In this document: in pieces, positions 4,123 through 39,379 of the stretch
How positions within the stretch are numbered: the stretch's first letter is position 1
Layout of the letters: every line of letters begins with the position of its first letter
Origin: a virus
Strand: one strand, 5' to 3'
Virus record (IMG/VR): IMGVR_UViG_3300048586_000179
Span: 5,146 to 69,145 of that record
DNA: 64,000 nt
Position numbers and translations under genes: made by a program
The notes under the pieces: generated by a model
Database searches by the model: none
Told to the model about the DNA's origin: nothing
What the model saw: the letters and a program-made list of their open reading frames with translations, nothing else

Positions 4123-4146
4123 AAAAAGCCACCCCCGAAGGGGTGG
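4123..4146 (-). terminator. intrinsic terminator closing the cassette array
   Basis: Minus strand CCACCCC-TTCG-GGGGTGG then CTTTTT directly after stop of 4153-4629. Confidence 0.8.
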
Positions 4147-4152
4147 TGAGGG

Positions 4153-4629
4153 TCAGCCGTGTGGCTGCGGCCAGGGGTCCTGACCGGCGAAGGTACGGCG
4201 AAGTGCGGCGGCTGCATCGCTCGCGGTGGCCTTGTAGCCGAGCGCGAAGTTGAAGAGCGGGTGGCCGCAGTGGTCTTCGCTGACCTTCTCAAGGCCCAGG
4301 AACTCCAGCGCGCCGTTGAGGATGAGGTCCCAGTCATATTCGACCGTGTCATCCTCATCGAGTGACCAGTCCGCACTGATGGCGGCCTGGTGCACGGTGC
4401 GCTTGCGCTTCTCCGGCTCGATGCTCTGCAGCCACATGGTGAAGGCAGCTCCGGCAATGCAGCCGGCGGTGCCGCAGGTGGTGGGGATTTCGGCTGAGTG
4501 GTAGACGTCAACCTTGAGCCCCGACCCCATGTCGAAGCGGTAGTGCGGCGCTCCCTGGTCGAAGAAGTCGATCAGCTTCTGCCGGTTGGCGGCAATCACG
4601 AGATCGAGCTGTTCGGGTTCTGTGGTCAT
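4153..4629 (-). CDS. hypothetical early protein (CGTAGCIAG motif)
   Basis: Cassette gene with RBS. Confidence 0.75.
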   Translation of the reverse strand: MTTEPEQLDLVIAANRQKLIDFFDQGAPHYRFDMGSGLKVDVYHSAEIPTTCGTAGCIAGAAFTMWLQSIEPEKRKRTVHQAAISADWSLDEDDTVEYDWDLILNGALEFLGLEKVSEDHCGHPLFNFALGYKATASDAAAALRRTFAGQDPWPQPHG

Positions 4630-4692
4630 GGAATGTCTCCTTGTTGATCCCGATGGGGACCCCGAAAAACCGCCCCTTGCGGGGCGGCGCCA

Positions 4693-5100: not shown

Positions 5101-5168
5101 GGGTGTCTCCTTTGTTGGTTCCCGAAGGGGACCCCGGAAAAGCCGCCCCCTTGCGGGGGCGGGGGCGC

Positions 5169-5555: not shown

Positions 5556-5625
5556 GGGATATCTCCTCTGTTGGGTCCCAAGGGGGACCCCGCAAAAGCC
5601 CCGCCCCCGGAGGGGCGGGACGTGG

Positions 5626-6033: not shown

Positions 6034-6102
6034 GGGTTTTCCTTTCGGTTGCTTCCCGAAGGGGACCCCGGAAAAGCCCGCCCCCTCATGGGGCGGGGTC
6101 GT

Positions 6103-6267: not shown

Positions 6268-6331
6268 GGTGGTTCCTTTCATGTGTCCTGTGGGGACCCC
6301 GGAAAAGCCCACCCCTCATGGGGTGGGCTGG

Positions 6332-6752: not shown

Positions 6753-6792
6753 GATGGGTCTCCTTTCATGTGTCCCGTGGGGACCACGGAGA

Positions 6793-7076: not shown

Positions 7077-7145
7077 TGTGGTCTCCTTCGTTTCCTATGG
7101 GGACCCCGGCAGATCAGCGAAAAACCACCCCCGAAGGGGTGGCCG

Positions 7146-7346: not shown

Positions 7347-8002
7347 GGCAGTGATCTCCTTTCCGGTGGGGACCCCGCAAGTGCACGCTCGACAGACCAC
7401 CCCCGGTCCAGCCGCGAGATGATTGTCTGGGCCCGGATGCCCGTGATCCTTGACCACTCAGCCACGCACAGATGTCGGCCCTGCCATGTGACGATCCTCG
7501 CCCTGCTGGAGTTGTGAGCCTGGACCCTACGCGTGGCCCAGCGGCAGTTGGACGGCTCATAGTTACCGTCGTTGTTGATCCGATCGACTGTCAGCTTAGG
7601 GTCGGGGCACGGCCCCAAGTCCTGAAGGAACCGGTCAAAGCCACCAGGGCCTGTCCATCTCTTGCAAACCCGGATCCCGCGCCCGCCATAGCGATGATAG
7701 CCGGCGTAGTTCTTGTCCTTGCAGCGCCGATGCATGTCCTTCCAGGCAAACCATTCCTTGGTATGGCTCATGCCGTGGGTCAGGGGGCGCGAGACCAGGG
7801 CTGCCCGCTGACAGCCGCAGCTCTTCACCCTGCCCCGCCAAACATGCGGCAGGTCGTATTCCTTCACCGTGCCACAAACGCACTGACATACAATCCGACG
7901 GCGAACCGTGCCCTTCCGCCCATCCGTGCCCCCGTAAATCTTGCGATCCGCCTCAGAGAGGCAGGTCAGGAAGTGAAAGGTCTTGCCAACTGGATCGAAC
8001 AT
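7343..8002 (-). mobile_element. free-standing HNH homing endonuclease gene
   Basis: CQCVCG...KSCGC, RGIRVCKRW, TVDRINNDGNYEPSNCRWAT; sits inside a cassette junction. Confidence 0.85.
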
Positions 8003-9625: not shown

Positions 9626-9709
9626 GTGGGTCTCCTTTCATTGGTCCCAGTAGGGACCCCGGCAAAACAGGCTTGGCAAAAGCGCCGCCCCCGAAGGGAC
9701 GGCGCGGTG

Positions 9710-10712: not shown

Positions 10713-10785
10713 GATGTTTCTCCTTCTTGGGTGTCCGGTGGGGACCCCGGAAAAGAGACCCACCCCGAGGGGTGGGCTGGATCAG

Positions 10786-10983: not shown

Positions 10984-11035
10984 CGCGTTCTCCTTTTCCT
11001 ATGGGGACCACGCAAAAGACCGCCCCGAAGGGCGG

Positions 11036-11975: not shown

Positions 11976-12043
11976 GGGTGTCTCCTTCGGTTGTTCCCCA
12001 TGGGGACCCCGGCAAAAAGCCGCCCCCGTAGGGGCGGCGGTCG

Positions 12044-12499: not shown

Positions 12500-12576
12500 C
12501 GGGTATCTCCTTTGTTGGGGTGTTCCCATGGGGACCCCGCACGCCAGGACGGGCAAAAGACCGCCCCGAAGGGCGG

Positions 12577-13044: not shown

Positions 13045-13108
13045 GATGGTCTCCGTTCATGTGTCCCATGGGGACCCCGCAGGCGAAAAGAGAGGGCGCT
13101 TGCGCGCC

Positions 13109-13735: not shown

Positions 13736-13813
13736 GTTGGTCTCCCTTGCTGATGGTGGTTCCTATGGGGACCCCGGCAAACAGGGTTGGCAAAAGGCCG
13801 CCCCGAAGGGCGG

Positions 13814-14071: not shown

Positions 14072-14161
14072 GTCAGTCGGTCCTTTCAGGTTGTCCTATG
14101 GGGACCCCGGCAAACGGGCGAAAAGCCCACCCCCGAAGGGGTGGTCAGTTGGGGCAGTGGC

Positions 14162-14449: not shown

Positions 14450-14525
14450 GGTCGTCTCCTCTGGGGCGTCTTGCTCCTATGGGGACCACGGCAAAATGCC
14501 CCGCCCGAAGGCGAGGCGAGGTGGG

Positions 14526-14843: not shown

Positions 14844-14913
14844 GCGGGTCTCCTTCTGTTCCCTATGGGGACCACGGGAAACGCCCACCCCCGAAGGGAT
14901 GGGCCCAGAAAGC

Positions 14914-15111: not shown

Positions 15112-15243
15112 GATGGCCCGGCGCAGCCCCTGGCTGCCGGGTCAGAAGGGCCGCAATGGCTCTCCGATGGGGACCACGAATGTTTCACGGCGAACATTGA
15201 GGGCACTTGGGAAAAGCCCCCGCCCAGGGGCGGGGGTCGGGTT

Positions 15244-15600: not shown

Positions 15601-15672
15601 GGGGGTCTCCTCTTGGTTGTTCCCTATGGGGACCCCGAAAAGGCCACCCCGTAGCGGCGGGGTGGCTCAATC

Positions 15673-16083: not shown

Positions 16084-16190
16084 TTGTGATCCTTTCTCGA
16101 TACGATGCCTGGAAGCCACACCATGCGGCTTCCCATGGGGACCACGCTAATCCCGGTAAGCGAAAAGACCGCCCCCGGAGGGGCGGTGGA

Positions 16191-16592: not shown

Positions 16593-16673
16593 GATCTGGG
16601 GTCCTTTCGTGGTTGTTCCCTATGGGGACCACGGCAAAGGCAAATGGACCGGACCCGAAGGCCCGGCCAGGAG

Positions 16674-16862: not shown

Positions 16863-16911
16863 GTGCTCTCCTTCCTCGCGCTTGGGGTTACTCCCGATGG
16901 GGACCCCGCGG

Positions 16912-17099
16912 AAAAAAGAACCTTCTCACGCTCTCTCCCATCCGTGCGAACGGGTGGGGCTTCACGCTGACATTCCATCAACTGCGCGGCTTCCACCGAC
17001 CTTCTCCAGAGCCTGTCACGGCCCGATCTCTGTCGGCTTTCACTGCTTCCCTCGCATGCTTGACAGCGGGTGCAGTTGAGAACGGATGTCTCGTTCTCC
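16912..17099 (-). ncRNA. putative structured ncRNA (cassette without ORF)
   Basis: Between motif 17103 and U6 tract; stems GAGAACG/CGTTCTC, AACTGC/GCAGTT, CCGAC/GTCGG, CCGT-TCGC-ACGG; no RBS-linked ORF. Confidence 0.55.
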
Positions 17100-17168
17100 T
17101 ATGGGGACCACACAAGATTGCGAAAAGAGACCCACCCCTTTCAGGGCGGGTCGGGCGCTCTCGGCCGG

Positions 17169-17291: not shown

Positions 17292-17328
17292 GGCAGGTCT
17301 CCTTTTCCCATGGGGACCACACGAGGCG

Positions 17329-17475
17329 AAAAAACGATGCCTTGCGGCATGTCCCCAGCCTGGATCCTCCATTCACCGTCGCCCTGGCGAACCAGGGATC
17401 AGGCGTCTTTCAGACCTGCCCCTTGCGGGGCTACCAAGCGATGCCTTTCAGCATGCTGGGCGAGGCCGTTATTCC
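17329..17475 (-). ncRNA. putative structured ncRNA with GNRA/UUCG tetraloops
   Basis: Outer stem CCCAGC/GCTGGG enclosing GAAA, GCAA and TTCG-capped hairpins, then terminator ATGCC-GCAA-GGCAT and U6. Confidence 0.7.
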
Positions 17476-17501
17476 TATGGGGACCACGGATTATCGGGGC
17501 G

Positions 17502-17775
17502 AAAAAATGCTGCCCTTGGGCGGCATCGACTGCTTTGTTGGTTTTACCGCACCGGTAGAGGCCGGCGCCGTCCAGCATCAGGACGATCGCAGTCTTGGCG
17601 TATCACCCCACGCCCGTGGGTCTCAATCCCCACCCTGACCATTCTTGAGTTCATGGTCGGGTGGGCCGTCTGGCAATCACTCTTCGGGAATGTCATTCGC
17701 GTCTTTTGCCAAACGGGAAACTTGCGTGAAGCAAGTCCCTCTGCGACTTTGTGCCGCCGCAGATTTCTGCATTCC
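17502..17775 (-). ncRNA. putative ~270-nt multi-hairpin ncRNA
   Basis: At least 6 stems followed by terminator; no RBS-linked ORF on the minus strand. Confidence 0.65.
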
Positions 17776-17990
17776 TATGGGGACCACGGATTATTCCGGC
17801 GGCCCGACTTCTCCCGGGCCAGGTCAATGATCCACTCGGACACCCACCCCTCGTCCAGCTGCATCTGCTCGTAGACCATCAAACCCACGATGTAGTCCTG
17901 CTGGAACTGCGTCAGCCCAAGGCCAGGCAGCGCCTGCCTGACCGTCTCCAACGCCTCCTCGAGCGTGGGGATCAGCGCATCACTCGCCAC
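17775..17990 (-). CDS. hypothetical protein
   Basis: GTG start overlapping upstream gene; TAG stop lies within the first array motif. Confidence 0.5.
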   Translation of the reverse strand: MASDALIPTLEEALETVRQALPGLGLTQFQQDYIVGLMVYEQMQLDEGWVSEWIIDLAREKSGRRNNPWSP

Positions 17991-21474: not shown

Positions 21475-21516
21475 AGGGAACGCTCCTCTTTTGTCGAAAG
21501 CAGGATTGCTTCCTAT

Positions 21517-21644
21517 GGGGACCACGCAACCCATTGAAAAAGCTAATGATTGGTAAAACATATTCGTGGCCGCAGCGCGGCGCAGCCGCGCGCCGCCTCA
21601 TCAGCTTGCGTGATTAGTGTAAACTGTCGCGGCATGTGGTCCCC
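21517..21644. promoter_or_regulatory. divergent pair of the cassette promoter motif with operator copy 2
   Basis: Leftward core 21517-21525, rightward GTGGTCCCC 21636-21644, 24-bp element 21603-21626 between. Confidence 0.8.
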
Positions 21645-21673
21645 ATAGGAAACAACACCTTAGGAGACTGAAC

Positions 21674-25126: not shown

Positions 25127-25128
25127 TC

Positions 25129-27989: not shown

Positions 27990-30900
27990 ATGGCTGGCGG
28001 CAACACGGCATATGACTGGCGTGACTTCATGTTCGACACGCGCGGAACCGGTGCGCCTGGTGGGAGTGCTGGTCTTGGCGACGCGCCCGGCCCCTCTGTC
28101 AACCCGGACATGCCGAAGAGCAGGCTGAACCTCAGTTTTGCGCCGGAGGTTGTCGAGCTACCCCCCAGCTTCTCTGTGGCAAACCGGGACGTTCGCAAGA
28201 CCTTCGGGGTGGGTTTCCGCGATCAGCTGTTCAATACGCCCGAATGGCGGGCGGCGAAGTCTGGTGCTGCCAAGGCTGCTGCTGAGAAGAAGGCTGCCGA
28301 GGATTGGCTTGCCGACAAGCCGGCGGCCGAGCGCGACCTGGTTCGCAACCTTGATGACGAGATCAAGGCGGGCAAGGACCGGATCAAGAAAGCAACGGAC
28401 GCCGAGGACTGGCCGACCGTGAAGGCCGAGAGCGAGAGGGTCGCGACCCTGGAGGCCGAGGCCAGCAGGCGCGCGCTGGAGAACACCCGCAAGGCGTCTG
28501 ACCCCAATCGCCTCTACGCTGGGGCGAACGCCGAGCAGAAGAAGGCGGCCGACGAGATTGCCCGCTTCAAGAAGGAACGGGGCAAGGCCTGGGATGCCAA
28601 GAAGACCAACATGAAGAACATCGCCAAGGGCGGTGCCGCGACGGCGCTCCTTGGTGGTGCCGCCTACCTTGGTGGCCAGCTCATGTCGGATGCCGAGGAG
28701 AAACGCAGGTCTGACCCCACGAAGGTGGCGGTCGACGATGTCGTCATGCGGGTGCTGTCTGGTGAGGAGGTCTCGCCTGACGAAATCTACATGATGGAGC
28801 AGTTCTACGCTGACGATCCCGACAAGGTCGCGGCCATCCTGCGGACGGGCGAGGAGGTTCGTGGTGGTGCGGCGCCCGTCGAGCCGCCACCCGCCGCTGC
28901 GCCTGAGGCGCCGGCTTCGCCGCCGGTTGGCCCTCGCATCGAGAACCTTCCGCTGACCGATGTGGCTTACCGTGAGGGCGCGGAGAAGCCCGCGGTTGTC
29001 AGGCCGACCCCGACCTATGACCCCGAGGTCATGCGGGCCATCCTCGAGGATCCCGAGGGTGGGCCTGAGGTTGCCCAGTGGTACAAGGACAATGCCGAGG
29101 CCGAGGACCTTCGGCGCCGGAACAATGCCTTCCTTGACGCCTCGATCGAGAACACGGCCGCGGCGGCCGGGAGCCCTGACTGGTTCCTTGACTACCTGCG
29201 GGGGCAGGGCGAGCAGTCGCGCGCGGTGGACGCGGGTGGTGAGCTTCCCGTATCCGACAACTGGTGGAACAACTACGTGGTGCCGACTGTCAGGGCCTCG
29301 GATGAGGGCTGGCAGCGCCTCTATGGGCGGATCGACGAGGCGTTCCCCGATGATCCGGCGACCTTCTGGGAAAACCCCATCGGCTACACCCGCAACGCCA
29401 TGGTGCCGGAGAGCTGGCAGGACGCGATCGACGGTGCGCTTGAGGGCGTCACGCCGCAGGACATGCTCGGGATCAACTTCCTCCTGGGTCAGACGACCGA
29501 CGAGATGAAGAACCTGCCCTACAGCGCCGTGCGGGATGGCATTCTGTCCCCCACCTTCTATGCCGGCGTCCTTGAGGATCCCGCGCTGTCGGCTGCTTAT
29601 GGCGAGGCCATGCGTAGCATGGGTGGCGAGCCGCTGCGTGGGCCTGACCCGATCACCGCACCGATCACCCAAGGCGCTGCCCCGCCTGCCTTCTGGGATC
29701 CAGGCATTCCTCCCGAACTGAACGCGGGGGCTGATGCGGGTGTGGGCGTTGGTGCCTACGATACCGGGATGCCGTCGATGGAGGACCTGAAGCGCCTCGA
29801 GGAGATCGGTGCGCTGGGGGCGAACCCTGACGGCAGCAACATGACGGTGGCGCAGTACATCCAGCAGGGCAACCTGGCTGGTGCTGGCATGCAGGCTGGC
29901 CTCCCGATGTTCGCTGGTTCCCCGATGCCGGTGCAGCGCGGGACGGTGATCCCGGAGGACCCGCGTCTTGGCCTGATGCCGGTGCCGCAACTGCCGCAGT
30001 TGCCGATGGCGCCGAGTGATATGCCCATCGAGGCCCGGGTGCCCCAGGGTACGCCCGGGTCGTTCCTGGACGAGAACGCGGGGGACTTCCGTCGCGCGGA
30101 CAACGAGTGGAACAAGCTGGCCACCATGCTGGGCCTGACGCCGACCGGTGAGCCGGTGCGTGGTGGCGCGGGCCTATCGGCCCCTGTCGCCCCTCTACCT
30201 GCCGCACCTGCCGCACCGGTCACTCCTGGCGGGGCTGGTGACCAGTGGGCATTGAGCAATCCCTTCGGCTCTCCTGCCGTCGCGGGTGAGGTCGAGGATG
30301 CACGGGCGGCTGAGGAAATCGCGCGCTACAACGAAGAGGTGGCCAAGAAGGACGAGGCAGTTTCAGCCCTTGTCGACCAGGACGAGGTGCTGAACCCGCG
30401 CGGCCAGTCGTGGACGTCCGGCCCTTCGGGCCAGACCTGGGGTGCAGGCCTGTCCAGTGACGCAGGCGCACTGTCGATGGGGTCGCCGGCAGCTTCGGCC
30501 CCCGTGGTCGCCACTCCCATGACCCCCGGCGGCAACCCGGCCCCGGGCGCGAAGGGCGATTTCAACGTGTCGCGCGAGCGTGGCGCTGCGGGTCTTGCCG
30601 AGGATGCGGAGGCGGCTGAGGAAGAGCTGAACTGGATCAACCGGATGATGCGGGACAAGCTGGGCATGACGGATGCCTCGCAGCGCAACAAGGCGGCCGA
30701 GGCCCTGATCTCGTTCGGCTCGTCGGTCCTTGCGTCTCGGGGTGACGACTGGCAGGCGCTCGGTGAGGGGCTGCAGGCCGGCTACGGCACGGTCACCCAG
30801 ATCAACGACGAGGAGGCGGCCGCGCTCGCCGCCCAGCAGGAAGCGATCCTTGAGGAGAACCGGTGGCGTGCCGAGATGGCCCTGAAGGAGCTGGCTGCGC

Positions 30901-31094
30901 GCAAGGGGGCGGGTGTCGATGGGATGCCCGACAAGCTTGCAGCTGTCGAGGAGACGGCGGCATATCTGGCACTCATGTACCCGGCACTCTCGGAGCAGGA
31001 AATCCGGGCGATGGCTGAGCGCTATGTCGGCATCAAGAGCGAGGCGGCTTGGGCCAACGCTGATCCGTTCGCTTTCCTTGAGGGGGTGAGCTGA
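27990..31094 (+). CDS. large internal virion (ejection) protein
   Basis: 1034 aa, low-complexity A/G/P regions, position before giant protein. Confidence 0.6.
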   Translation: MAGGNTAYDWRDFMFDTRGTGAPGGSAGLGDAPGPSVNPDMPKSRLNLSFAPEVVELPPSFSVANRDVRKTFGVGFRDQLFNTPEWRAAKSGAAKAAAEKKAAEDWLADKPAAERDLVRNLDDEIKAGKDRIKKATDAEDWPTVKAESERVATLEAEASRRALENTRKASDPNRLYAGANAEQKKAADEIARFKKERGKAWDAKKTNMKNIAKGGAATALLGGAAYLGGQLMSDAEEKRRSDPTKVAVDDVVMRVLSGEEVSPDEIYMMEQFYADDPDKVAAILRTGEEVRGGAAPVEPPPAAAPEAPASPPVGPRIENLPLTDVAYREGAEKPAVVRPTPTYDPEVMRAILEDPEGGPEVAQWYKDNAEAEDLRRRNNAFLDASIENTAAAAGSPDWFLDYLRGQGEQSRAVDAGGELPVSDNWWNNYVVPTVRASDEGWQRLYGRIDEAFPDDPATFWENPIGYTRNAMVPESWQDAIDGALEGVTPQDMLGINFLLGQTTDEMKNLPYSAVRDGILSPTFYAGVLEDPALSAAYGEAMRSMGGEPLRGPDPITAPITQGAAPPAFWDPGIPPELNAGADAGVGVGAYDTGMPSMEDLKRLEEIGALGANPDGSNMTVAQYIQQGNLAGAGMQAGLPMFAGSPMPVQRGTVIPEDPRLGLMPVPQLPQLPMAPSDMPIEARVPQGTPGSFLDENAGDFRRADNEWNKLATMLGLTPTGEPVRGGAGLSAPVAPLPAAPAAPVTPGGAGDQWALSNPFGSPAVAGEVEDARAAEEIARYNEEVAKKDEAVSALVDQDEVLNPRGQSWTSGPSGQTWGAGLSSDAGALSMGSPAASAPVVATPMTPGGNPAPGAKGDFNVSRERGAAGLAEDAEAAEEELNWINRMMRDKLGMTDASQRNKAAEALISFGSSVLASRGDDWQALGEGLQAGYGTVTQINDEEAAALAAQQEAILEENRWRAEMALKELAARKGAGVDGMPDKLAAVEETAAYLALMYPALSEQEIRAMAERYVGIKSEAAWANADPFAFLEGVS

Positions 31095-34000
31095 TGGTCG
31101 ATCAGGCTGGGCTTTCGTTTGGCCCATCGACGTCTGCGGGTGTGGGTCTCAACGAACCAGCGCCACCTCTCACCATGCAGGATCGTGTTCGGGAGGTCAT
31201 GCGCCTGCGTCAGCAGGGGTATTCGCTTGACGAGGCCCGGCGTGCGGTTGGCGGGGCTGATGCCGTGACAGCGCCACCACCACCGTCGCAACCGACCCCT
31301 GACCCTGGTGGCATGTCCCGCCTGGGCCTGATGGTTCCGGGCGCGCTCTCCTACGCCTCGGATGTCGTTTCCGGGGCGGGCACCATCATCGAAAACCTTA
31401 CGGGGATCGACGGGATCGACGAGGGGAGCCGGGCGCTTGGTGATGCCATCGGGCCGAGCGAGATGCAGGAGGCCACGCGCGATGAGCGCTATGCCGAGCG
31501 CGCCCGCCGGGCAGAGGCTGGCGAGATCAGCGCCACGGAGCATTTCATCGGTGACGCGCTCGATGCCACGGCGGAGAGCGCGCCGGCCTTCGTTGGTGGT
31601 CTTGCGGGGGCCAAGGGCGGTCAGCTGGTCGGGCGCGCGGGCTACGCCGCGCTGTCGCCCGCGGCTCGGGCCATTGGCCTCGACAAGGTGGGCGCTGTCG
31701 CTGGAAAGGCGCTGACCGCTGTCGTTCCGGGCGCAAAGAAGCTGAAGGGCATGAAGCCGCTTTTGGAGAAAGGCTTCGCCACCCTGGGTGCCTTTGCTGT
31801 TCCGACTGCTGCCTATCTCGAGAGCGGCCGGGATCGCGCGATCAAGGAGGGGCTCGATGTGGCTGATCCGGAAGTCCAGGACCGGATTGCAACGCAGGCC
31901 GTCGCGCGGGGCGCGCTGGAAAGCCTTCCCATCCTGTCGATCTTTGGCCGGCTGACCAACCGGGCCGCCCAGGTGGAGGGGCGGGTTGCTGCGGCGTTCA
32001 AGGTGGGTGGGAAGTCTGCGCTCTTTGAGGGGACGCAGGAGGTCGCGGACCTGGCGCTGGAAGAGCTTTACCTCAACGACGAGTTGCGGAGCCGCCTGAA
32101 CCAGGATGACTGGGCCGAGATCATGCCGTTCCTGGTTGACCGCTTCGGTCGGGATGCCGCTCTTGCGATGGTTGCCGGTGGCGGTGTGGGTGCGGCGGTG
32201 GGTGTGCCATCGGGCTTTACCCAGCAGGCCGTCACGAACCAGCAGGCCGCGCAGGAAGTTCGTATGGCGGCCCAGGTCCTTGAGCCGATGGGGATGGGGA
32301 CGCAGGAGCTTGAGGAGCTGAGCCGGACACCTGAGGGTGCCGCCAAGTTGCGGGAGGCGGTCCAGCGCATCTCACTTGTTGAGCGTGCCCGGTCCACGCA
32401 GATGCGGGAGATTGACCGTCGCGCCGAGGAGGGCGCGGAGGAAGAGGTGGCCATGCTCCGTGAGCAGGTCAACAACCAGCTTGACGCCCGCATCGACAAG
32501 ATCGCGGCGTTCCTGGGCGCTCCGAAGTCGCTTGAGGATGTGCGCCGCGAGCGCAGCGCAATGGAGAAGGACCGGAAGCGCCGGGCGATGGACCGGATCG
32601 CCGAGCGTGGGTTCAAGCCACAAGCGGACCTGACGGCCGAGGTTGCCGAACAGGTTGCGAACCGCTTGGACACGGCTGAGGGCCAGGTCGACCGGCTCCG
32701 GAGCCGGGTCGAGGCGACGGCCAACCCGGAGCGCAAGGCGGAAGCCCAGCGTGAACTCGACGAGGCGCTGGCTGAGCGCCAGCAGGCCCGGATCGATGCG
32801 CGCATGAAGGTTGAGGGGCTGACCCCGGCGCAGGCCCTGAAGGCCGTCGAGGGCGAGGACAGGCAGACCGATGCTCAGCGCCGCCGGCAGGCGCAGAGCG
32901 CGGCGCGCGAGCGCGCCGTCGAGCGCCAGATGGAGATCGAGATGCCGGAGACGATGGCTCCGGCGCTGCGCGTCCAGCGCGCACAGGAGATCATTGCCGA
33001 GGCCGAGGCGGATGAACGCCCGGATGCAGGCCTCGACGGGAAGATCAAGCGCCTTGAGCGCCAGAGACGGGCCGCGACATCCCCTGAAGATGTTGATAGG
33101 CTCACAGACGAGATCGCCGATCTTGAGGCACGGCGCGGTCTGCCCACACCTGCGGTGGAAGCGGCGCGTCGTGTTCTGCAGGCTCAGGGTGTAGCGGTCC
33201 CGCCGAGCGGTGAGGCGTCAGGGCCCACAGCTCAATCCGCCGAAGCTGAGGGTTTGCAGCCTGAGGGGACGGCATCAGGGCCGGTGGGCGCGGCAGCGCC
33301 TGCCGGTCCGCGCAATGCGCTCGACACCCCCACGCTGGCCGCTCGTGAGGCAAAGGCCATTCGTGAAGCGTCGACACCAGAGGCGCAGCTCGCAGCATTC
33401 GATGCTGCACTGTCAGATCGTCGTGTGGTTGATCCGGTAAAGCTCGAGGAGGCAAGAACCACCTTCGAGGTGGAGAGTTTTGCTGGTGGTGATCCTGTGG
33501 CTGCAGCTGAGGCCGCTCTGGCCACCGTGGTCGCGACCGACCGCGAGGCGGGCCGCCGGGCAATGGCCGCGAAGACCTACAAGCGCGCGCCGCGCGCCGA
33601 GGGCTTCGACATCGAGGGCGGCAACCCGTTCCGGGATCTCTCTGGCGAGATCGAGACCGGCAAGGGGCTGGCCGCCCTGGAGGCGTCGATGTCAGAGTGG
33701 TCGGCCAAGTCTGGCTTCGAGGCCGCAGCCCATGTCGACGAGGCGACGGGCGAGGTCCTTGGCGTCGTGACGAACGACATGGTCAACGCCATCATGCCGC
33801 CGAAGGCTGGCCTCAACGACCGCAGGATCACCTTCACCCACACCCACACCGCCAACACGCCTTTTTCGTCCGCTGACGTGCGTGCGGCGCTGATGTCAGG
33901 ACAGCCCTTCCGGGCTGTCCTGCCTGATGGGTCGGTCATCGCCATGCGGCCGACGCGTCGCTACAATCCGGACGGCTTCTACAAGGTCTTCCGCGCCGTC

Positions 34001-37000
34001 AGGGAATATCTCGCCGACAAGCTGCCTTCGGACATGCCATTCGTGGATCGCGCCGTGATCCGCCAGGAGGCATTCCTGCAGGCCATGGAGATGGCTGGTG
34101 CCATCGAGTACCGGTCGCCCTTTCGTGGGCTGACCGATCAGCAGAAGGACTACGTCAATGCAGCAGTCGACGCCACGGCCGCCGTCAGTGCCACAGCCTT
34201 TGTACGAGATGGAGCTCCTGGACGAGCGGGAACTGCGGAAGCTGGCGGCCCAGGGGGACAGGCTGGCGAGCGAAGAGCTGTCGATGAGGCGGTTGGAGAG
34301 GAAGAGCCTGACGCCGACGACTTTGACGCCGAAGGTGTAGACTTCGAGCAGGGGGTCATCGGTTACCTCGATCCTCGGAGTTCACAGCGGCAGAAGCGGC
34401 CGTCCTATAACGAGGGTCGGGTCGCCGAGATCGCCGACAAGATCATCGCTGACGTCACCGCCCAGCGGGCGAAACGGACGATCGCCGCGGACATGATCCG
34501 TGAGGGCAGGGTCACGCGCGAGCAGCTGATTGCGGGTATCGGCGAATACCTCAAGAGCGACGGCCGCAAGCAGATGTACACGGTGACCGATGTGCGCCGT
34601 GCGATGTTCACGACCCCGATCACCTTTGACATGCTCTACCAGCGGGCCGAGGGGCGGACCAATCGCGCTACCAAGGCGGGCACGAAGCTTTGGAGCGTGA
34701 AGCCTGAGTACCTTCCGGAGTTCCAGCTGGCGCTGGACCTCGAGCGCCTGATCAATAATGCCGGCATGGGTGGTATCCGGCGGATCGAGAACAAGTTCGC
34801 GGCCGGTGGCGGCTTCGGTGAGGGCAAGACCTACTTCCTCGAAATCTCACCCGAGCTTCGCAGGTTCACCGAGCTGATCGGGCCGGAGGGCATGCGCTTC
34901 GACCCGCCCATGGCCGACCCCAACAACACGAGGCAGCTCAAGCGCAACCGGAACAGCAACCGGCTCTCGCGGGAGGGCCTGGATGTTGCCGCGCGCACGG
35001 CCCGCTACCTGCAGGCCAATCGCTACAAGATCGATCGGGACAAGCTCTACGCGATCGAGCCTGATGACCTGATCTCCGGCAAGTCGCTGGCGCGGGATGG
35101 GATAAAGCGGTCTGATATCGCGAAGTGGGACGCCATGCGTCCTGCGATTGCTGGCGTATCCTTGAAGACCATGCCGAAGGACCAGGCCTACTTCGTCAAG
35201 AACATCGGCTGGAAGATCGACGAGAAGCGGCGCGATGCGGCCAGCCGCATCCGGCAACTCCGAACGGCCTACGAGACCTTCGTGGCCGAGCATGGTGCCG
35301 ATGCGGATGTCGGCTTCATGTACCAGATCGACGACCGTGGCCGGATCTATGCCGATGGCTCTTTCCACCCGCAAGCGGACGGCGACATCAAGGCGCTCTT
35401 CTCGGTGGATGGGAAGAACATCGTTGACGACATGGTGACGGTCGACAACTCGGCGTCCGGCTGGCAGATCAACGCGCTGATGGCCTATGACCACGTCGCG
35501 GCGCCGCACCTGAACATGGGGCGGGGTCAGGCGACGCAGGAGGGTTACCGGAAGTCGGACCTCTATACCAACACGCTCGAAGCCATGCGGCAGCGGCTCT
35601 TGAGGGATGCGGAGGCCGAGATCCCCGCCGGGCTTGGCGTGCGGGAGCGGGCCAAGGCCGAGAAGCGCAAGCGCTGGGCGCGCTACTTTGTCGACACCAT
35701 CTTCCCCTCGGCAGACCCCAAGTCATGGAAGCTCGATCGGGATGGGATCAAGCCCGCCATCATCGCGATGAACTATGGCGGCCTGGACAAGAACTTCCGC
35801 AGGGTGCTGCAGAAGGTCCTGAAAAACGACATTCGCCTGCCTGACGGCGACAACGAGGGCGCCTGGTCGTACCTGACCGAGGCAGGGATGGAAGGTGTGG
35901 AGAAGACCGCTCCGCACGCCCTTGCCCTGCAGAAGTGGACCGTGGCGAATGTCGCCGCGCTGTCGCGCGCCCTCTACGCCAAGTACGGCGAGGCGACCCC
36001 GACGATCGATGTCACCATCGGCATCGATGGCAAGATCTCCGTGAAGCGGCAGAAGCGGGTCGAGACCGAGACCCGCATCAAGCAGCTGGCGAACGAGGTG
36101 ACCGTCAAGTTCAAGGTGAACAAGCCCGAGCCGGACCACGACAAGGTCGCCAAGGCGGTCTGGGCGAACCTGGTCCAGTCCTACGATGCGGCTGTCCTTC
36201 ACCGCACGGTCGAGCGGTACAAGCGCGCGACGGATGGTGCCTACATCACCACGAACCATGACAGCTTCACCGTGCCGCGTGAGCAGGAGGGCGCGATTTC
36301 CTCTGCGGTTCGCGAGAGCATGCGGACGATCATGGAGCAGGTCGATGTTCCCCAGTCTCTTTACGAGGAGCTGACCGCAATCGCCCGCCGGGAGGGGGTC
36401 GAGGTCGATATCCAGCCGTTCGACAACCTGGGCCGCTATAGCTACGACGACCTCATGACGTCGACGCCGGTATTCGGTGAGGACGTTCTCAAGGTGGACG
36501 AGCGGGGTAAGCCCTATGACTTCGTTCCTGAATACGCCGAATTGCCCGAGGCCGGTGCCGAGTTGCGCCGCGCCATAGACGACGAGGTTCCGGTGGGTGG
36601 TGGCAGCACACCAACTACCGGATCGCCCCCTGCCTCTGTCCCGGTTCAGGGGCAGGGGGCATCACGCATCGAGGATCTGGCGCCCGAGGTTCGGCGCGCG
36701 GTCGATGTGGCGGATTACATGGCCTCACTGCCGGAGAGCCGTTCGCTCCTGCAGAAGGTGCAGGAGATGGCCGCCTCACCCAAGGTGGCCAATCGCACCT
36801 TGATGCAGATCATGGAAGACACGTTCTTTAACGCCGCGGCCCCGATCCGCAGGCTTGAGATCGCGGTCAAGGGGGCATTGCCGCAGGGTGCCGAGAGCGC
36901 CTTCAAGGCAGTCGAGATGGCGGTCCAGGACAGTGGCCGTCAGGAGGCGCTGCTCTACTACGGCGCGGCCAGGTTTGGACAGTACGGCGAGTATTCTGTC

Positions 37001-39379
37001 GCCCCTGGCACGATGGGTCTTTACGACATCTTCAAGCTGGCCGGCGGCGAGGGGGCTGACCGTGGCCAGCGTCTGCAGGACTGGATGCAGTGGATGGTCG
37101 CCCGCCGGGCGCAGGACCTCGCGGCCCGCGGGATCAAGACGCCCCTTACGCCCCAGGACATCCAGCAGGCACTGGCCAAGGGCGCGAATATCCCGGAGTT
37201 CCAGCAGGCAGCGGATGCCTGGAAGAAGTTCAACGACGCCAACCTCGACTTCCTCGAGCAGTCGGGGCGGATCAACGCGGCCCAGAAGGCAGCGATGCAG
37301 GCTGATGACTTCTACGTCCCCTTCTACCGGGCAGACGAGCGCGTCGATGGCACCTCGCCGGAGCTGGAGCTGCCCGAGTATCGCGCGGGAACGGTGAAGA
37401 CGGGCGTCCTGTCGCGAGACCCGGGGATCATGAAGATCAAGGGTGGCGACAAGCTCAGGATCGACAACCTGATGCAGAACATGATCCGCAACAGCCAGGC
37501 CATGGTGGCCGCAGGCATGCGGAACAGGGCCGCCAACCAGACCTTCGACCTGATGAAGGTCGCGGGGATGGCCCGGGTCGAGCCGCTGACGACCAAGAAG
37601 CCTGATCCGAACGCGGTGCGTGTCTGGCAGAATGGCGTCGAGAGTTGGCTGGTTCCCGAGGGGCGTGAGGCTTATCCGGTGATGATGGCCTTGGCTGGCA
37701 TGCAGCCGGTCCAGCAGGGCCCGGCGATGCAGTTCATGACGGACCTTGCCAACATCTTCCGTCAGGGCATCACGCTCACCCCGCCCTTCATGATCCGCAA
37801 CGCCATTCGTGGTGCTGTCTCGTCGGGTATCATGACGACTGGGGCCAACCTCACCCTGACCAACAACACCATCACCGGCTTCCGGGATGCCTATAACAAC
37901 GGGCAGGCCACCCAGGCCTTCAAGGCGCAGTCCGGGATGGGCGATTATCGGTTCGGTGGCACCGACACCGGCTTCGGCAAGAACGACATCCTGATCGAGT
38001 TCGGCCTCTCGCCGAAGACGATGGGGTCGCGCTTCCGGAAGTTCATGGAGAAGATGGAGCATGTCGGCTCGGCCACCGAACTGGCCGACCGCATCGCGGC
38101 CCGTGAGACCATGATCGCCAACGGTATGCGGCCCGACGAGGCTTCTTACCAGGCCCTGACCATCATGAACTACAGCCGCAAGGGCAACAGCCAGGCGCTG
38201 CGCGCCTGGTTGCCGCTCGTGCCGTTCCTGAACGCGCGCCTGCAGGGCCTCTCGCGACTGGCCGAGGGCGCCGTGGGGCGGCGCGGGGCGCTCGGGCGCA
38301 GGCAGGCGCTGATGCAGATGGGGCTGAACGGCCTCATCTACTCGGCCTTCGGTGCTGCGGTCTGGCTCTGGAACGCCTCGGATGAGGAGCGGCGCGAGAA
38401 GTATGCACAGGAGCCGCTGTACCGGCGCCTGAACTTCCACATCGTCTACGTGGGCGACACCACCCTCTACATCCCGAAGGCCTTCGAGTTGGGGCACCTC
38501 TTTACCTCGATCCCCGAGCTCTTTGCTGACGCGATGGTTGGCGACATGAACGAGGGTGGCGCTGAAGGTCTCGCGATGGTCGGCTCCGGCATCTTCAAGA
38601 TCGCCTACGACACCGTCGCCATGAACCTGATCCCCGCGGCGGTCCTGCCGAGTATCGAGGCCATGACGAACTTCAGCTTCTTCCGTCAGGCCGAGATCGA
38701 AGGGCAGCGCGAGCAGGACATGCTGCCGGCGGACAGGACGGCCGGTGCCTCCATGCTGTCGCGCCTGGTCGGGCGGGACATGGGTATCTCAGATCTGACC
38801 GGTATCTCGCCCACGATGATCGAGCACTGGCTGTCGAGCCACGGCGGGATCTATTACACCATGCTCAGCACGGCAGTGGAGATCGCAGCGGGTGATATGG
38901 GGCTTGCCCCGGTCCGGCCGGGCGGAGCCTTTGGCGACGTGCCGGTGATCTCGCCTGCGTTGACGGCGGCCTTCGGGTCGATGGTCAGGGATACCAACGT
39001 GGCGTCGACGCGGTTCATCGAGGAATACTACCGGACGAAGAACTACGTCACCCAGATCTACCGTTCAGCCGCTAACGCCGCGCGCGGCGGGGATGTCGAG
39101 TACGCCCGCCGCCTGCTGTCGGAGTTTGGCGGTGCGCCGGCAGCCTACAAGCTGATGAACCGGGCCGGTACGGAGCTGACGGACATCAACACGGCACTCA
39201 GGATGCTGCGGGACAACAGGGAAATGAGCCGCGAGCGCAAGCGCGCCGAGGAGGAGAAGCTGATCGCCCGGCGCAACGCGATCACCCGTGAGGTCGTGAA
39301 CACGATCAGGGCTATCGAGGAGAAACAGGGCACCGACTTCCGCAGTGGTCAGGGGGTATTGGCCAGGATCCTGCCGTGA
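31094..39379 (+). CDS. giant virion polyvalent protein: JAB-like domain + T7-type RNA polymerase + LPD38-like C-terminus
   Basis: DDRGRIY, VDNSASGWQ (motif A), RDGIKPAIIAMNYG (motif B), ANLVQSYDA, NHDSF (motif C); THTH...FSSAD; YIPKAFELG. Confidence 0.85.
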   Translation: MVDQAGLSFGPSTSAGVGLNEPAPPLTMQDRVREVMRLRQQGYSLDEARRAVGGADAVTAPPPPSQPTPDPGGMSRLGLMVPGALSYASDVVSGAGTIIENLTGIDGIDEGSRALGDAIGPSEMQEATRDERYAERARRAEAGEISATEHFIGDALDATAESAPAFVGGLAGAKGGQLVGRAGYAALSPAARAIGLDKVGAVAGKALTAVVPGAKKLKGMKPLLEKGFATLGAFAVPTAAYLESGRDRAIKEGLDVADPEVQDRIATQAVARGALESLPILSIFGRLTNRAAQVEGRVAAAFKVGGKSALFEGTQEVADLALEELYLNDELRSRLNQDDWAEIMPFLVDRFGRDAALAMVAGGGVGAAVGVPSGFTQQAVTNQQAAQEVRMAAQVLEPMGMGTQELEELSRTPEGAAKLREAVQRISLVERARSTQMREIDRRAEEGAEEEVAMLREQVNNQLDARIDKIAAFLGAPKSLEDVRRERSAMEKDRKRRAMDRIAERGFKPQADLTAEVAEQVANRLDTAEGQVDRLRSRVEATANPERKAEAQRELDEALAERQQARIDARMKVEGLTPAQALKAVEGEDRQTDAQRRRQAQSAARERAVERQMEIEMPETMAPALRVQRAQEIIAEAEADERPDAGLDGKIKRLERQRRAATSPEDVDRLTDEIADLEARRGLPTPAVEAARRVLQAQGVAVPPSGEASGPTAQSAEAEGLQPEGTASGPVGAAAPAGPRNALDTPTLAAREAKAIREASTPEAQLAAFDAALSDRRVVDPVKLEEARTTFEVESFAGGDPVAAAEAALATVVATDREAGRRAMAAKTYKRAPRAEGFDIEGGNPFRDLSGEIETGKGLAALEASMSEWSAKSGFEAAAHVDEATGEVLGVVTNDMVNAIMPPKAGLNDRRITFTHTHTANTPFSSADVRAALMSGQPFRAVLPDGSVIAMRPTRRYNPDGFYKVFRAVREYLADKLPSDMPFVDRAVIRQEAFLQAMEMAGAIEYRSPFRGLTDQQKDYVNAAVDATAAVSATAFVRDGAPGRAGTAEAGGPGGQAGERRAVDEAVGEEEPDADDFDAEGVDFEQGVIGYLDPRSSQRQKRPSYNEGRVAEIADKIIADVTAQRAKRTIAADMIREGRVTREQLIAGIGEYLKSDGRKQMYTVTDVRRAMFTTPITFDMLYQRAEGRTNRATKAGTKLWSVKPEYLPEFQLALDLERLINNAGMGGIRRIENKFAAGGGFGEGKTYFLEISPELRRFTELIGPEGMRFDPPMADPNNTRQLKRNRNSNRLSREGLDVAARTARYLQANRYKIDRDKLYAIEPDDLISGKSLARDGIKRSDIAKWDAMRPAIAGVSLKTMPKDQAYFVKNIGWKIDEKRRDAASRIRQLRTAYETFVAEHGADADVGFMYQIDDRGRIYADGSFHPQADGDIKALFSVDGKNIVDDMVTVDNSASGWQINALMAYDHVAAPHLNMGRGQATQEGYRKSDLYTNTLEAMRQRLLRDAEAEIPAGLGVRERAKAEKRKRWARYFVDTIFPSADPKSWKLDRDGIKPAIIAMNYGGLDKNFRRVLQKVLKNDIRLPDGDNEGAWSYLTEAGMEGVEKTAPHALALQKWTVANVAALSRALYAKYGEATPTIDVTIGIDGKISVKRQKRVETETRIKQLANEVTVKFKVNKPEPDHDKVAKAVWANLVQSYDAAVLHRTVERYKRATDGAYITTNHDSFTVPREQEGAISSAVRESMRTIMEQVDVPQSLYEELTAIARREGVEVDIQPFDNLGRYSYDDLMTSTPVFGEDVLKVDERGKPYDFVPEYAELPEAGAELRRAIDDEVPVGGGSTPTTGSPPASVPVQGQGASRIEDLAPEVRRAVDVADYMASLPESRSLLQKVQEMAASPKVANRTLMQIMEDTFFNAAAPIRRLEIAVKGALPQGAESAFKAVEMAVQDSGRQEALLYYGAARFGQYGEYSVAPGTMGLYDIFKLAGGEGADRGQRLQDWMQWMVARRAQDLAARGIKTPLTPQDIQQALAKGANIPEFQQAADAWKKFNDANLDFLEQSGRINAAQKAAMQADDFYVPFYRADERVDGTSPELELPEYRAGTVKTGVLSRDPGIMKIKGGDKLRIDNLMQNMIRNSQAMVAAGMRNRAANQTFDLMKVAGMARVEPLTTKKPDPNAVRVWQNGVESWLVPEGREAYPVMMALAGMQPVQQGPAMQFMTDLANIFRQGITLTPPFMIRNAIRGAVSSGIMTTGANLTLTNNTITGFRDAYNNGQATQAFKAQSGMGDYRFGGTDTGFGKNDILIEFGLSPKTMGSRFRKFMEKMEHVGSATELADRIAARETMIANGMRPDEASYQALTIMNYSRKGNSQALRAWLPLVPFLNARLQGLSRLAEGAVGRRGALGRRQALMQMGLNGLIYSAFGAAVWLWNASDEERREKYAQEPLYRRLNFHIVYVGDTTLYIPKAFELGHLFTSIPELFADAMVGDMNEGGAEGLAMVGSGIFKIAYDTVAMNLIPAAVLPSIEAMTNFSFFRQAEIEGQREQDMLPADRTAGASMLSRLVGRDMGISDLTGISPTMIEHWLSSHGGIYYTMLSTAVEIAAGDMGLAPVRPGGAFGDVPVISPALTAAFGSMVRDTNVASTRFIEEYYRTKNYVTQIYRSAANAARGGDVEYARRLLSEFGGAPAAYKLMNRAGTELTDINTALRMLRDNREMSRERKRAEEEKLIARRNAITREVVNTIRAIEEKQGTDFRSGQGVLARILP

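Follow-up and report, generated by a model that had tools for sequence, protein, structure and literature searches.

Does a phage outside the N4 group carry a T7-type RNA polymerase (RNAP) into its host inside a giant virion protein, and does that enzyme then read a set of promoters of its own? The question is raised by a 64,000-nucleotide stretch of phage DNA (the window), which covers bases 5146-69145 of the 69,145-bp IMG/VR record IMGVR_UViG_3300048586_000179 (the whole record is referred to as G000). The window encodes a 2761-residue protein, P0001, with a T7-type RNAP domain, and carries 30 copies of a short oriented motif ahead of small genes and structured RNAs. From these features we infer, with a probability of roughly 0.6, a packaged and ejected T7-type polymerase that has promoters of its own and uses them to transcribe about 30 self-contained early units, with packaging, injection, promoter use and independence from the host RNAP as the predicted features.

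P0001 has a 'beads on a string' build, with linkers rich in Pro, Gly and Ser, and its RNAP lies in the middle of the chain.

31094..39379, plus strand: giant multidomain virion-type protein P0001, 2761 residues; an open frame with Pfam matches to RNA_pol and LPD38
34331..36583, plus strand: T7-type single-subunit RNAP domain, residues 1080-1830 of P0001; recognized by AlphaFold (AF2) modelling, Foldseek, hhalign and invariant catalytic residues

The Pfam family RNA_pol (PF00940) matched residues 1448-1767 (E = 5.7e-14; 52.2 bits against a cut-off of 22, and 56.1 bits in a genome-wide search), and PHROG 414, 'RNA polymerase', matched P0001 with E = 1.3e-25. P0001 was the sole PF00940 match of the entire record, including the 5,145 bases beyond the window, which bears out the original prediction that the window has no stand-alone RNAP gene and holds a T7-type core within its 2761-residue protein. 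The segments that we take to be the motifs T/DxxGR, A, B and C read DDRGRIY (DxxGR; residues 1413-1419), VDNSASGWQ (1450-1458), IKPAIIAMNYGG (1552-1563) and NHDSF (1721-1725), and all align with their T7 RNAP counterparts. An exhaustive search of residues 1080-1830 against 1.84 billion representative proteins (E ≤ 0.001) returned 30 proteins. The best 22 (E < 1e-30) were 1269-3859 residues long, with the RNAP domain at approximately residues 1000-1950 in the full-length giant homologues; the other eight were short (112-828 residues) and weak (E 4e-13 to 8e-4). Residues D334, R338, D372, K474, Y482, H643 and D644 (numbering of the domain piece) were invariant in an alignment of 21 proteins.

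Comparison with solved polymerases placed the domain close to T7. A profile of the 21 homologues matched T7 RNAP in the PDB with E = 6e-18 and the N4 RNAPII subunit with E = 3e-5, and gave no match to the N4 mini virion RNAP (vRNAP) at E ≤ 0.1. Alignment by hhalign to T7 RNAP had a probability of 98% (E = 7e-14) over 359 columns, up to the last residues of T7, compared with a probability of about 1% (E = 0.057) over 58 columns for residues 990-2110 of N4 gp50. The AlphaFold model of residues 1080-1830 had a predicted local distance difference test score (pLDDT) of 87.8 and a predicted template-modelling score (pTM) of 0.87. Its best Foldseek matches were full-length T7 RNAP chains (E = 5e-18; query-normalized TM-score, TMq, of 0.56 to the promoter complex 1cez), with alignments spanning about 850-890 columns, followed by mitochondrial RNAPs. 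A long beta-hairpin at piece residues 574-601 (strands E574-585/E588-601) precedes motif C where hhalign puts the T7 specificity-loop region, and the N-terminal third of the modelled domain has two further hairpins. As modelled, the RNAP domain is not limited to the catalytic core: it has the whole T7 fold, and both the N-terminal promoter-binding domain and the specificity beta-hairpin are part of it. By sequence comparison, P0001 is assigned to the T7-like RNAP family and not to the N4 vRNAP family.

In the cited sections of a 2026 N4 paper (PMC13434306), the N4 vRNAP is described as carried in the virion, ejected, responsible for rifampicin-resistant early transcription and built as beads on a string; its promoters take the form of an extruded single-stranded DNA hairpin, and the giant vRNAP is called 'unique to this family' as a hallmark of N4-like phages. 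P0001 resembles N4 gp50 in being giant and multidomain, in being encoded among virion genes and in having its RNAP in the middle third, between non-enzymatic N- and C-terminal regions; both come with a set of enzyme-specific early promoters, the use of which is predicted for P0001. In contrast to N4, the RNAP domain is not of the N4 lineage (hhalign E values above), the zincin motif HEXXH was found in none of the 22 members of the P0001 family by a motif-level test, the phage motif is linear and without a conserved hairpin, and there are about 30 promoters compared with a handful in N4. There is also no second phage RNAP, and the portal relatives (best 15 of 18 matches) are not schitoviruses. 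The original prediction had combined N4-like delivery with T7-like promoters. Its T7 part is supported at the level of sequence and model, while the N4 part stands as an analogy only, because P0001 is not an N4-family vRNAP. Each component of the prediction that lent itself to computation agreed with it and no result spoke against it, although this support is indirect.

The RNAP domain shares its fold, its catalytic motifs and its nearest sequence family with T7 RNAP. However, it is embedded in a 2761-residue protein and is followed by about 950 residues past the free C-terminus of T7, is encoded in the structural block and not as an early gene, and has no cysteines. Among 50,697 cultured-phage records, its best matches were the RNAPs of T7-like phages, which are stand-alone proteins, with an identity of about 25% across 43% of the domain (E = 2e-7).

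If P0001 is a polymerase of this kind, the motif is a candidate for its promoter. A search with the pattern GKGGTCCCCATAGG, allowing up to two mismatches, found 29 strict copies against 1.17 expected, a count reached in none of 100 shuffles; 28 lie on the minus strand (4650-21525) and one on the plus strand (21636). A position weight matrix (PWM) made from these 29 sites was run over both strands of the whole genome, and scored the sites themselves at 17.6 bits or more, with just two other positions above 8 bits. One of the two, at window position 9658 on the minus strand (13.7 bits), has its own terminator, ribosome-binding site (RBS) and 108-residue open reading frame (ORF). With this degenerate copy the total is 30, as originally counted, and 29 of them are on the minus strand at 4.6-21.5 kb. 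The orientation specificity claimed for the motif was also confirmed, and every copy points in the direction of the gene that follows it.

The consensus is TTTT-S-CGK-GGTCCCC-AT-N-GG-R-A(-A), a conserved block of about 19-23 nt with flanks, in which the T-run belongs mostly to the end of the terminator before it. Because the search pattern itself demanded GGTCCCC and the GG after it, these positions are invariant by construction. The G at position -2 is invariant (29/29) independently of the pattern, the C at -3 is present in 26/29 copies, and the A and T before the free base in 25/29. The base after AT is free (A in 14 copies, C in 8, G in 6 and T in 1); thus, of the proposed ending ATA-GG, the AT and the GG stood and the fixed third A did not, with the exact ATA in 14/29 copies. 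Promoter-proximal copies (17785-14487) mostly read CGT-GGTCCCC-ATA and distal copies (12008-4661) mostly CGG-GGTCCCC with other triplets, and these two types may be classes of strength or timing.

The copies occupy the positions expected from the original prediction. A perfect GC-rich hairpin with a T-run ends 7-41 nt upstream of 24/29 copies, 11 of them within 7-10 nt, and in 26/29 copies an RBS and an ORF of 30 residues or more come 16-78 nt after the GG. The remaining three (17785, 17485 and 17109) stand at the head of units (288, 155 and 192 nt) that have no ORF of this kind. The PWM placed no site among the structural genes, none in the replication genes that lie left of 4.1 kb, and none in the 5 kb of the record beyond the window. 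All that the structural region holds is the bare 7-mer GGTCCCC, at 41734, 52524, 54999 and 58020; each of the four is antisense, lies within a gene and does not exceed 8 bits, in agreement with the claim that this region has no intergenic copy. The individual copies are as follows.

21634..21652, plus strand: sole plus-strand motif copy; RBS, 42-residue hydrophobic ORF (21674-21802), terminator at about 21846-21872, then late genes
21509..21527, minus strand: motif copy, divergent partner; RBS, 58-residue membrane-like ORF (21298-21474), terminator 21290-21266
17771..17789, minus strand: motif copy; heads a unit of 288 nt (17775 to 17488) in which no ORF of 30 residues or more follows an RBS
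17471..17489, minus strand: motif copy; heads a non-coding unit of 155 nt (17475 to 17321), closed by a hairpin and T6
17304..17322, minus strand: motif copy; RBS, 40-residue ORF; terminator 18 nt upstream
17095..17113, minus strand: motif copy; heads a 192-nt non-coding unit (17099 to 16908)
16891..16909, minus strand: motif copy; RBS, 62-residue ORF
16616..16634, minus strand: motif copy; RBS, 133-residue ORF; terminator 16 nt upstream
16129..16147, minus strand: motif copy; predicted transcript starts with a 5' hairpin; 136-residue ORF; terminator 24 nt upstream
15620..15638, minus strand: motif copy; RBS, 118-residue ORF with a signal-peptide-like N-terminus; terminator 8 nt upstream
15161..15179, minus strand: motif copy; long leader, ORF of 57-65 residues; terminator 41 nt upstream
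14859..14877, minus strand: motif copy; RBS, 105-residue ORF; terminator 9 nt upstream
14473..14491, minus strand: motif copy; RBS, 95-residue ORF; terminator 11 nt upstream
14092..14110, minus strand: motif copy; RBS, 85-residue HTH_3 protein (Pfam E = 6e-5); terminator 20 nt upstream
13759..13777, minus strand: motif copy; RBS, 208-residue ORF; terminator 24 nt upstream
13062..13080, minus strand: motif copy; RBS, 155-residue DUF7694 protein; terminator 16 nt upstream
12522..12540, minus strand: motif copy; RBS, 151-residue ORF; terminator 22 nt upstream
11994..12012, minus strand: motif copy; three-gene unit (86, 115 and 123 residues); terminator 10 nt upstream
10995..11013, minus strand: motif copy; RBS, 65-residue ORF; terminator 8 nt upstream
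10732..10750, minus strand: motif copy; two-gene unit (212 and 125 residues); terminator 11 nt upstream
9644..9662, minus strand: degenerate 30th copy, GGTCCC-TACT-GGGA; RBS, ATG, 108-residue ORF; terminator directly upstream; PWM 13.7 bits
9005..9023, minus strand: motif copy; RBS, 299-residue DUF932 protein; terminator 36 nt upstream
7360..7378, minus strand: motif copy; RBS, 66-residue ORF; no hairpin found by the scan upstream
7091..7109, minus strand: motif copy; RBS, 76-residue ORF; terminator 17 nt upstream
6771..6789, minus strand: motif copy; RBS, 83-residue ORF; terminator 37 nt upstream
6284..6302, minus strand: motif copy; RBS, ORF of 54-59 residues; terminator 7 nt upstream
6053..6071, minus strand: motif copy; RBS, 135-residue ORF; terminator 9 nt upstream
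5575..5593, minus strand: motif copy; RBS, 128-residue ORF; terminator 8 nt upstream
5119..5137, minus strand: motif copy; RBS, 135-residue DUF3085 protein; terminator 9 nt upstream
4647..4665, minus strand: last motif copy; RBS, 158-residue ORF (4153-4629); terminator 7 nt upstream; final terminator 4146-4129

Because a tiny ORF and a terminator come right after the plus-strand copy, there is no obvious sign that it feeds the late operon. Upstream of this copy lies an element of about 22 nt, GCTTGCGTGATTAGTGTAAACT (21598-21622, plus strand), the reverse complement of which is found upstream of the copy at 6785 (6790-6812, minus strand).

The shape of the motif resembles that of a single-subunit-RNAP promoter, and its recognition by P0001 is predicted. 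The conserved block is contiguous and asymmetric, without the two-box spacing of -35/-10 or -24/-12 elements, and its end, AT-N followed by GG, resembles that of the annotated T7 promoters phi1.1A (...CACTATA/GAGGGA) and phi1.1B (...CACTATA/GGAGA), where the slash precedes the G at +1. The likeness of ATN/GG to the T7 ending TATA/GG had been part of the original prediction and was upheld. T7 RNAP terminates at a hairpin followed by a U-run, and terminators of this form close the cassettes. The motif differs from T7 promoters in its distribution, as it stands only before small early genes and never before DNA-metabolism or structural genes.

A different reader of the motif was also considered, namely the host RNAP working with an alternative sigma factor or a factor of the phage, or a helix-turn-helix (HTH) protein for which the motif would be an operator; the RNAP domain would then pull DNA in or prime replication. 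The link between domain and motif is correlative only, two cassette or neighbouring genes encode HTH proteins, and the core GGGGTCCCC (9 bp, with a 4-bp GGGG/CCCC stem) is an intact palindrome in 16/29 copies. However, the palindrome is broken in the other 13 and never extended, and the block is asymmetric and strictly orientation-specific, on which grounds a repressor palindrome was rejected. A repressor site with no promoter role also fails to explain the placement between terminator and RBS, and the GG at a fixed distance fits a start site. No sigma-70 r2 or r4 domain was found in the phage genome; a sigma54 or sigma70 two-box promoter was rejected because of the way in which conservation is distributed and because sigma genes are lacking. 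Sigma70-like sites in the region were not enriched (2 found against 3.4 expected). We regard a reader other than P0001 as quite unlikely.

The same stem counts bear on hairpin forms of the element. An alternative TCCCC/GGRA stem has 3-4 bp in 25/29 copies, and the DNA folding energy of the motif 20-mer (-2.7 kcal/mol) was within one standard deviation of shuffled sequences (-1.9 ± 1.4 kcal/mol). With the palindrome often broken, the stems short and the energy near that of shuffles, neither an N4-type hairpin nor a convincing RNA helix is present; an N4-type hairpin promoter was rejected accordingly. These results also count against the motif being an RNA processing, stability or translation signal in long read-through early transcripts, a role that its position 16-50 nt upstream of start codons and the RNase III cleavage of T7 early mRNAs between genes might suggest. 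Three copies head units without an ORF, and little read-through RNA is expected because strong intrinsic terminators precede 24/29 copies. Such a role is highly improbable.

A promoter read by P0001 would make each cassette a transcription unit. Most units hold one gene, and two or three hold two to four genes. Pfam families were matched by 5 of 20 scanned cassette proteins (HTH_3, DUF7694, DUF932, DUF3085 and a weak HTH), a low yield that is typical of early accessory genes. At the level of sequence, the region has the modular organization first proposed, with small early-type genes that are each bracketed by a terminator. The 155-nt and 192-nt non-coding units are each about 90% identical to their counterparts in a related genome, G001 (L020:8386-8545 and L020:8746-8935), and the changes mostly keep predicted pairs, with two and three compensatory pairs, respectively. 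Rfam at the gathering threshold gave 0 families and ARAGORN 0 tRNAs; the non-coding units therefore match no known family. The three motif-headed units without an ORF are candidate phage small RNAs that would be made first by the phage polymerase.

Whether the polymerase could be delivered with the DNA depends on the remainder of P0001, whose predicted domain order is an N-terminal region, a JAMM-like domain, the complete T7-type RNAP and an LPD38 module of about 900 residues.

36686..39376, plus strand: C-terminal, mainly helical module of about 900 residues with LPD38; recognized by LPD38, PHROG 18222/9854, tblastn and BFVD
33611..34318, plus strand: domain just upstream of the RNAP with a JAMM-like motif, HxH-x6/7-S-x1/2-D, at residue 916; recognized by the motif and by language-model look-alikes
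27990..31094, plus strand: 1034-residue protein P0002; one-base overlap with the giant gene, 0 Cys, next to the giant gene in L002, L016 and L017

LPD38 matched residues 2435-2596 (E = 1.9e-19), and PHROG 18222/9854 matched the C-terminal module. A tblastn search with full-length P0001 against cultured phages hit 18 records, in every case inside residues 1858-2742; annotations among them included 'large polyvalent protein', 'putative virion structural protein', 'DarB-like antirestriction', 'RelA/SpoT' and methylases. The model of residues 1865-2761 was moderate (pLDDT 68.4) and gave 87 matches in BFVD at E ≤ 0.001 (TMq up to 0.67). Nearly all of these were the last pieces of proteins named 'large polyvalent protein associated domain-containing', and some were named RelA/SpoT, restriction methylase or LT_GEWL. 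In other phages the module is thus joined to RelA/SpoT, methylase, DarB-like or lytic-transglycosylase (LT_GEWL) domains or annotations.

Polyvalent proteins are described as probably packaged and delivered with the DNA, and LPD38 as confined to those of the phage type, in the cited sections of Iyer, Burroughs, Anand, de Souza and Aravind 2017 (PMC5512222). Judged by its sequence, P0001 is a member of this class, being large, multidomain and LPD-bearing, encoded beside the portal and terminase genes and built on a module that different phages combine with different effector domains. Its C-terminal module is homologous to that of P1 DarB-like proteins and of the LPD38-bearing proteins of PTXU04, phiARM81mr and Pag-Yong1, in which variable effector domains likewise lie N-terminal to the conserved module of a giant protein encoded beside the packaging genes; the module would serve in packaging and ejection. 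P0001 differs in that its effector is a complete T7-type RNAP, whereas the RNAP modules of polyvalent proteins described in the cited sections of PMC5512222 are of the N4 type, occur in N4-like phages only and are almost always fused to a zincin. Our literature search found no report of a T7-type RNAP inside a virion or polyvalent protein of a non-N4 phage, with the limit that the supplements of PMC5512222, which lay outside the search, may list more architectures. The 'possible vRNAP' of StenR_269 is, in the cited part of PMC10747016, a guess from size and lack of Cys, and has no polymerase domain.

Cysteine content also points, indirectly, to ejection. P0001 has no Cys in 2761 residues (P about 7e-13) and P0002 none in 1034 (P about 3e-5), relative to 1.0% Cys in 75 other predicted proteins of this phage of at least 80 residues. 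The lack of Cys extends to 21 of the 22 giant homologues (the remaining one has 2), compared with 5-11 Cys in each of six stand-alone homologues (518-828 residues). Lack of Cys is expected of proteins that cross the periplasm or travel unfolded, and is also cited for the N4 vRNAP in that part of PMC10747016. P0002 matched no PHROG or Pfam family and is a candidate companion ejection protein. The JAMM-like motif occurs 150-250 residues before the RNAP in 19 of the 22 family members; the three that do not have it belong to the shorter entries (1269-2470 residues), from which the region may be absent. Weak language-model look-alikes of this region were Phage_min_cap2 (0.90) and JAB families (0.76-0.81). 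Pfam and PDB sequence searches gave no match, and for this reason the domain is kept as a lead only, a candidate processing peptidase or capsid anchor.

The delivery evidence bears on a further alternative, in which the motif is the promoter of the P0001 RNAP and the enzyme, as the giant protein or as a fragment processed from it, is made after infection under the host RNAP, with the cassettes as middle or accessory genes similar to T7 class II/III. T7-type RNAPs normally act after de novo synthesis, candidate host-type TTGACA promoters are present at 18146 (plus), 4106 (minus) and 3882 (minus), and the packaging of P0001 is itself inferred. Against this, the RNAP is part of an 8.3-kb gene in the middle of the structural and packaging block, with no motif copy or obvious promoter ahead of it, and is fused to a module typical of packaged polyvalent proteins; P0001 is Cys-free, unlike its stand-alone homologues; and the motif serves small ORFan genes only and never structural genes, the opposite of the T7 scheme. 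We consider synthesis of the enzyme after infection unlikely.

The TTGACA-containing sequences are of interest in their own right. The element CTTGACAA, with a perfect TTGACA box, occurs at the three intergenic places named above, at the borders of the motif array: one precedes the primase genes, and the others precede the first two leftward genes that have no motif copy. Two of the three are followed, 9-10 nt on, by CT(A/C)TAGCGA. These sites are candidate host-RNAP or middle promoters that may mark the hand-over from the phage polymerase.

Several points weigh against a packaged and ejected polymerase. The presence of P0001 in virions, its ejection and its activity are deduced, and the co-occurrence of motif and polymerase is known from two closely related genomes only. 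The model of the C-terminal module was moderate and had no PDB fold match at E ≤ 0.001, and hence none to a solved ejection protein. Among the motif copies, 13/29 differ at position -11 (G/T) and 15/29 in the ATA triplet, so that promoter strength or even use may vary. The counterpart of the T7 C-terminus (...TSTPVF) lies at about residue 1794 of 2761, with about 950 residues after it. The C-terminal residues of T7 RNAP (the 'foot') must be a free end; the aligned ...PVF is not, and the RNAP domain therefore needs cleavage or another working mode. Cleavage, perhaps by the JAMM-like domain, is possible, though the peptidase idea comes from a short motif without Pfam or PDB backing. Regulation mediated by the C-terminal domain (CTD) is also possible by analogy with N4, the CTD of which is reported to inhibit or regulate polymerase activity in the cited sections of PMC13434306.

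With these points included, a packaged T7-type polymerase remains our preferred reading; most of the remaining probability is shared by the same promoter-polymerase pair without injection and by a different reader of the motif. The steps of the preferred reading would be as follows. P0001 would be packed into the capsid by means of its conserved non-enzymatic modules and would leave through the tail together with the DNA, the route assumed for polyvalent and ejection proteins. In the cell, the RNAP domain would bind the double-stranded element of about 19-23 bp, TTTT-S-CGK-GGTCCCC-AT-N/GG-R-A, and start at the GG. It may first be released or de-repressed, a step suggested by sequence features and proposed because the T7-like foot is not a free end. 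The approximately 30 units would each be transcribed separately, as a promoter, a leader of 16-50 nt with an RBS, one to three small genes or a structured RNA of about 150-290 nt, and a hairpin and U-run terminator, which often stops just 7-11 nt short of the next promoter. Replication and structural genes, which lack the promoter, would be left to the host polymerase.

At the level of evolution, virion-delivered transcription may have arisen a second time, independently of N4, through capture, in a podophage lineage outside the schitoviruses, of a T7-clade RNAP as a polyvalent effector that uses ordinary double-stranded promoters to express about 30 insulated one-gene units, three small structured RNAs among them, first in infection; we place this slightly short of an even chance. 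Hairpin extrusion, gyrase or single-stranded DNA-binding protein would not be needed, because the promoters are of the ordinary double-stranded T7 style. The 29 co-oriented promoters could in addition act as a transcription-driven ratchet that draws the genome in. If true, a T7-type polymerase lineage was recruited to the job of the N4 vRNAP in an unrelated phage group. This would bear on how very large folded enzymes pass through a phage tail, given the Cys-free, linker-rich build of the whole family, on how a T7-type enzyme functions without a free C-terminus, on how polymerase and promoter specificity co-evolve when the polymerase is a swappable domain, and on which early genes a phage wants expressed before the host machinery is engaged. 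An orthogonal expression set for high-GC bacteria could be built from the new T7-like polymerase, the compact 19-23-bp promoter and the tight terminators.

Related genomes provide a comparison for both the polymerase and its putative promoters. Searches of IMG/VR, JGI metagenomes and GTDB genomes found eight related loci, and in six the gene order tail fibre, 1034-residue protein, giant protein, large terminase subunit (TerL; two ORFs) and portal is kept as far as the contigs reach. G001, with an RNAP domain 78% identical to that of P0001, was the sole relative to reach into the early region. There it has 10 motif copies, behind terminators and before RBSs or the same non-coding units, with a divergent pair at the same conserved AT-rich spot as in this phage. 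The co-occurrence of motif and RNAP domain in related genomes, proposed as a check, was therefore found in this one relative. The element GCTTGCGTGATTAGTGTAAACT is kept at the divergent promoter pair of G001 as well. The exact pattern, scanned across 2.9 million IMG/VR contigs, matched 26 stretches from 25 contigs, and G001 alone had more than one copy (7, in two stretches).

The other relatives were fragments without the early region: L003, L004 and L015/G004 from IMG/VR, L016-L018 from metagenomes and L022, a contig of a metagenome-assembled genome (MAG). Scans for further relatives with P0033, P0020 and the primase-helicase gave nothing, and a TerL scan gave short contigs only. An apparent repeated DNA motif in G004 (L019, about 24030-25500) proved to be a collagen-like GKGDKGD coding repeat in a tail-fibre gene. 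The giant-RNAP family is rare (22 clusters among the 1.84 billion representatives). The 10 of the 22 best homologues that were looked up all derived from metagenome assemblies or MAGs and had no informative names, and the family is for that reason not yet open to experiment.

Phages of the L017/L004 type revealed an uneven pattern of divergence. Their TerL is 95-96% identical to that of this phage, the portal 89%, the tail fibre 78% and the C-terminal module of the giant protein 78-79%, while the RNAP domain (L017:10001-12247 and L004:1436-3682, compared with window 34331-36583) is only 41% identical. The divergence is strongest in the N-terminal promoter-binding third (20-27% identity in several 30-residue windows); identity is about 37% around the specificity hairpin and 60-73% at the catalytic motifs. 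In these sequences, the polymerase domain behaves as a fast-evolving or exchanged cassette, and 41% identity within flanks that are 79-96% identical suggests that promoter specificity has perhaps been swapped as a cassette.

The phage as a whole appears to be a complete podophage of about 69 kb that is akin, by its structural genes, to the HTVC023P / CRP-901 / Caulobacter RW group and not to N4. The nearest cultured relatives of its portal are the pelagiphages HTVC023P/027P, the roseophages CRP-901/902, Planktothrix and Synechococcus phages of the Pag-Yong1 type and the Caulobacter phages RW/GB2A, with 26-28% identity over 91-93% for the HTVC023P and CRP-901 types; among the best 15 of 18 portal-matching records there was no schitovirus. 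Identity as a distant schitovirus was ruled out by these portal relatives together with the single PF00940 match and the N4 hhalign E value of 0.057. P0001 sets this phage apart from HTVC023P and CRP-901, in that it carries an RNAP inside a giant protein; CRP-901/902 are described as without any RNAP gene in the cited part of PMC10149686. A megablast search with 24 kb against the 50,697 phage records gave no match. The IMG/VR record is classed as having direct terminal repeats, with an estimated completeness of 100%; the exact terminal repeat is 42 bp and may be merely a sign of circular assembly.

Gene blocks were drawn from a crude gene call based on third-codon-position GC content (GC3) and the ORF list; GC content is about 64% along the whole length. 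A leftward block on the minus strand extends from about 18.1 kb to the start of the window and goes on around the end of the record. It is followed by a short rightward primase / primase-helicase pair at 18.3-20.8 kb (PHROG 1156, E = 4e-74) and then, from about 21.9 kb to 59 kb, by a long block of structural genes that also runs rightward; this last block encodes a virion protein, a tail fibre, a VanY/M15 peptidase, the 1034-residue and 2761-residue proteins, TerL (two ORFs), the portal, the major head protein and tail-fibre/collar proteins. The giant gene lies between the tail-fibre gene and the terminase and portal genes, with TerL and portal directly downstream. Among replication genes, the primase, the primase-helicase and a helicase of PHROG 62 were noticed, and a search of the whole record found no DNA polymerase of family A (PF00476). 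Two copies of an AT-centred palindrome, GTCCCAAAATTTTGGGAC (20862-20885 and about 20948-20970), lie where the window has its lowest GC content (0.596), with the primase-helicase gene on one side and a small ORF on the other, and could be an operator, an origin or a bidirectional terminator.

TerL is encoded by two overlapping ORFs, 39376-40326 and 40319-41038 (plus strand; 316 and 239 residues). The split is not an assembly error, because L003, L015, L016, L017 and L018 carry it too, and it could reflect a programmed frameshift or a genuinely two-part TerL. Finally, a gene for a 189-residue VanY / peptidase M15 protein (D-Ala-D-Ala carboxypeptidase; 27079-27648, plus strand; E = 6.8e-16) lies between the tail fibre and the candidate ejection proteins, and its predicted product could be a virion-associated cell-wall hydrolase or an endolysin.

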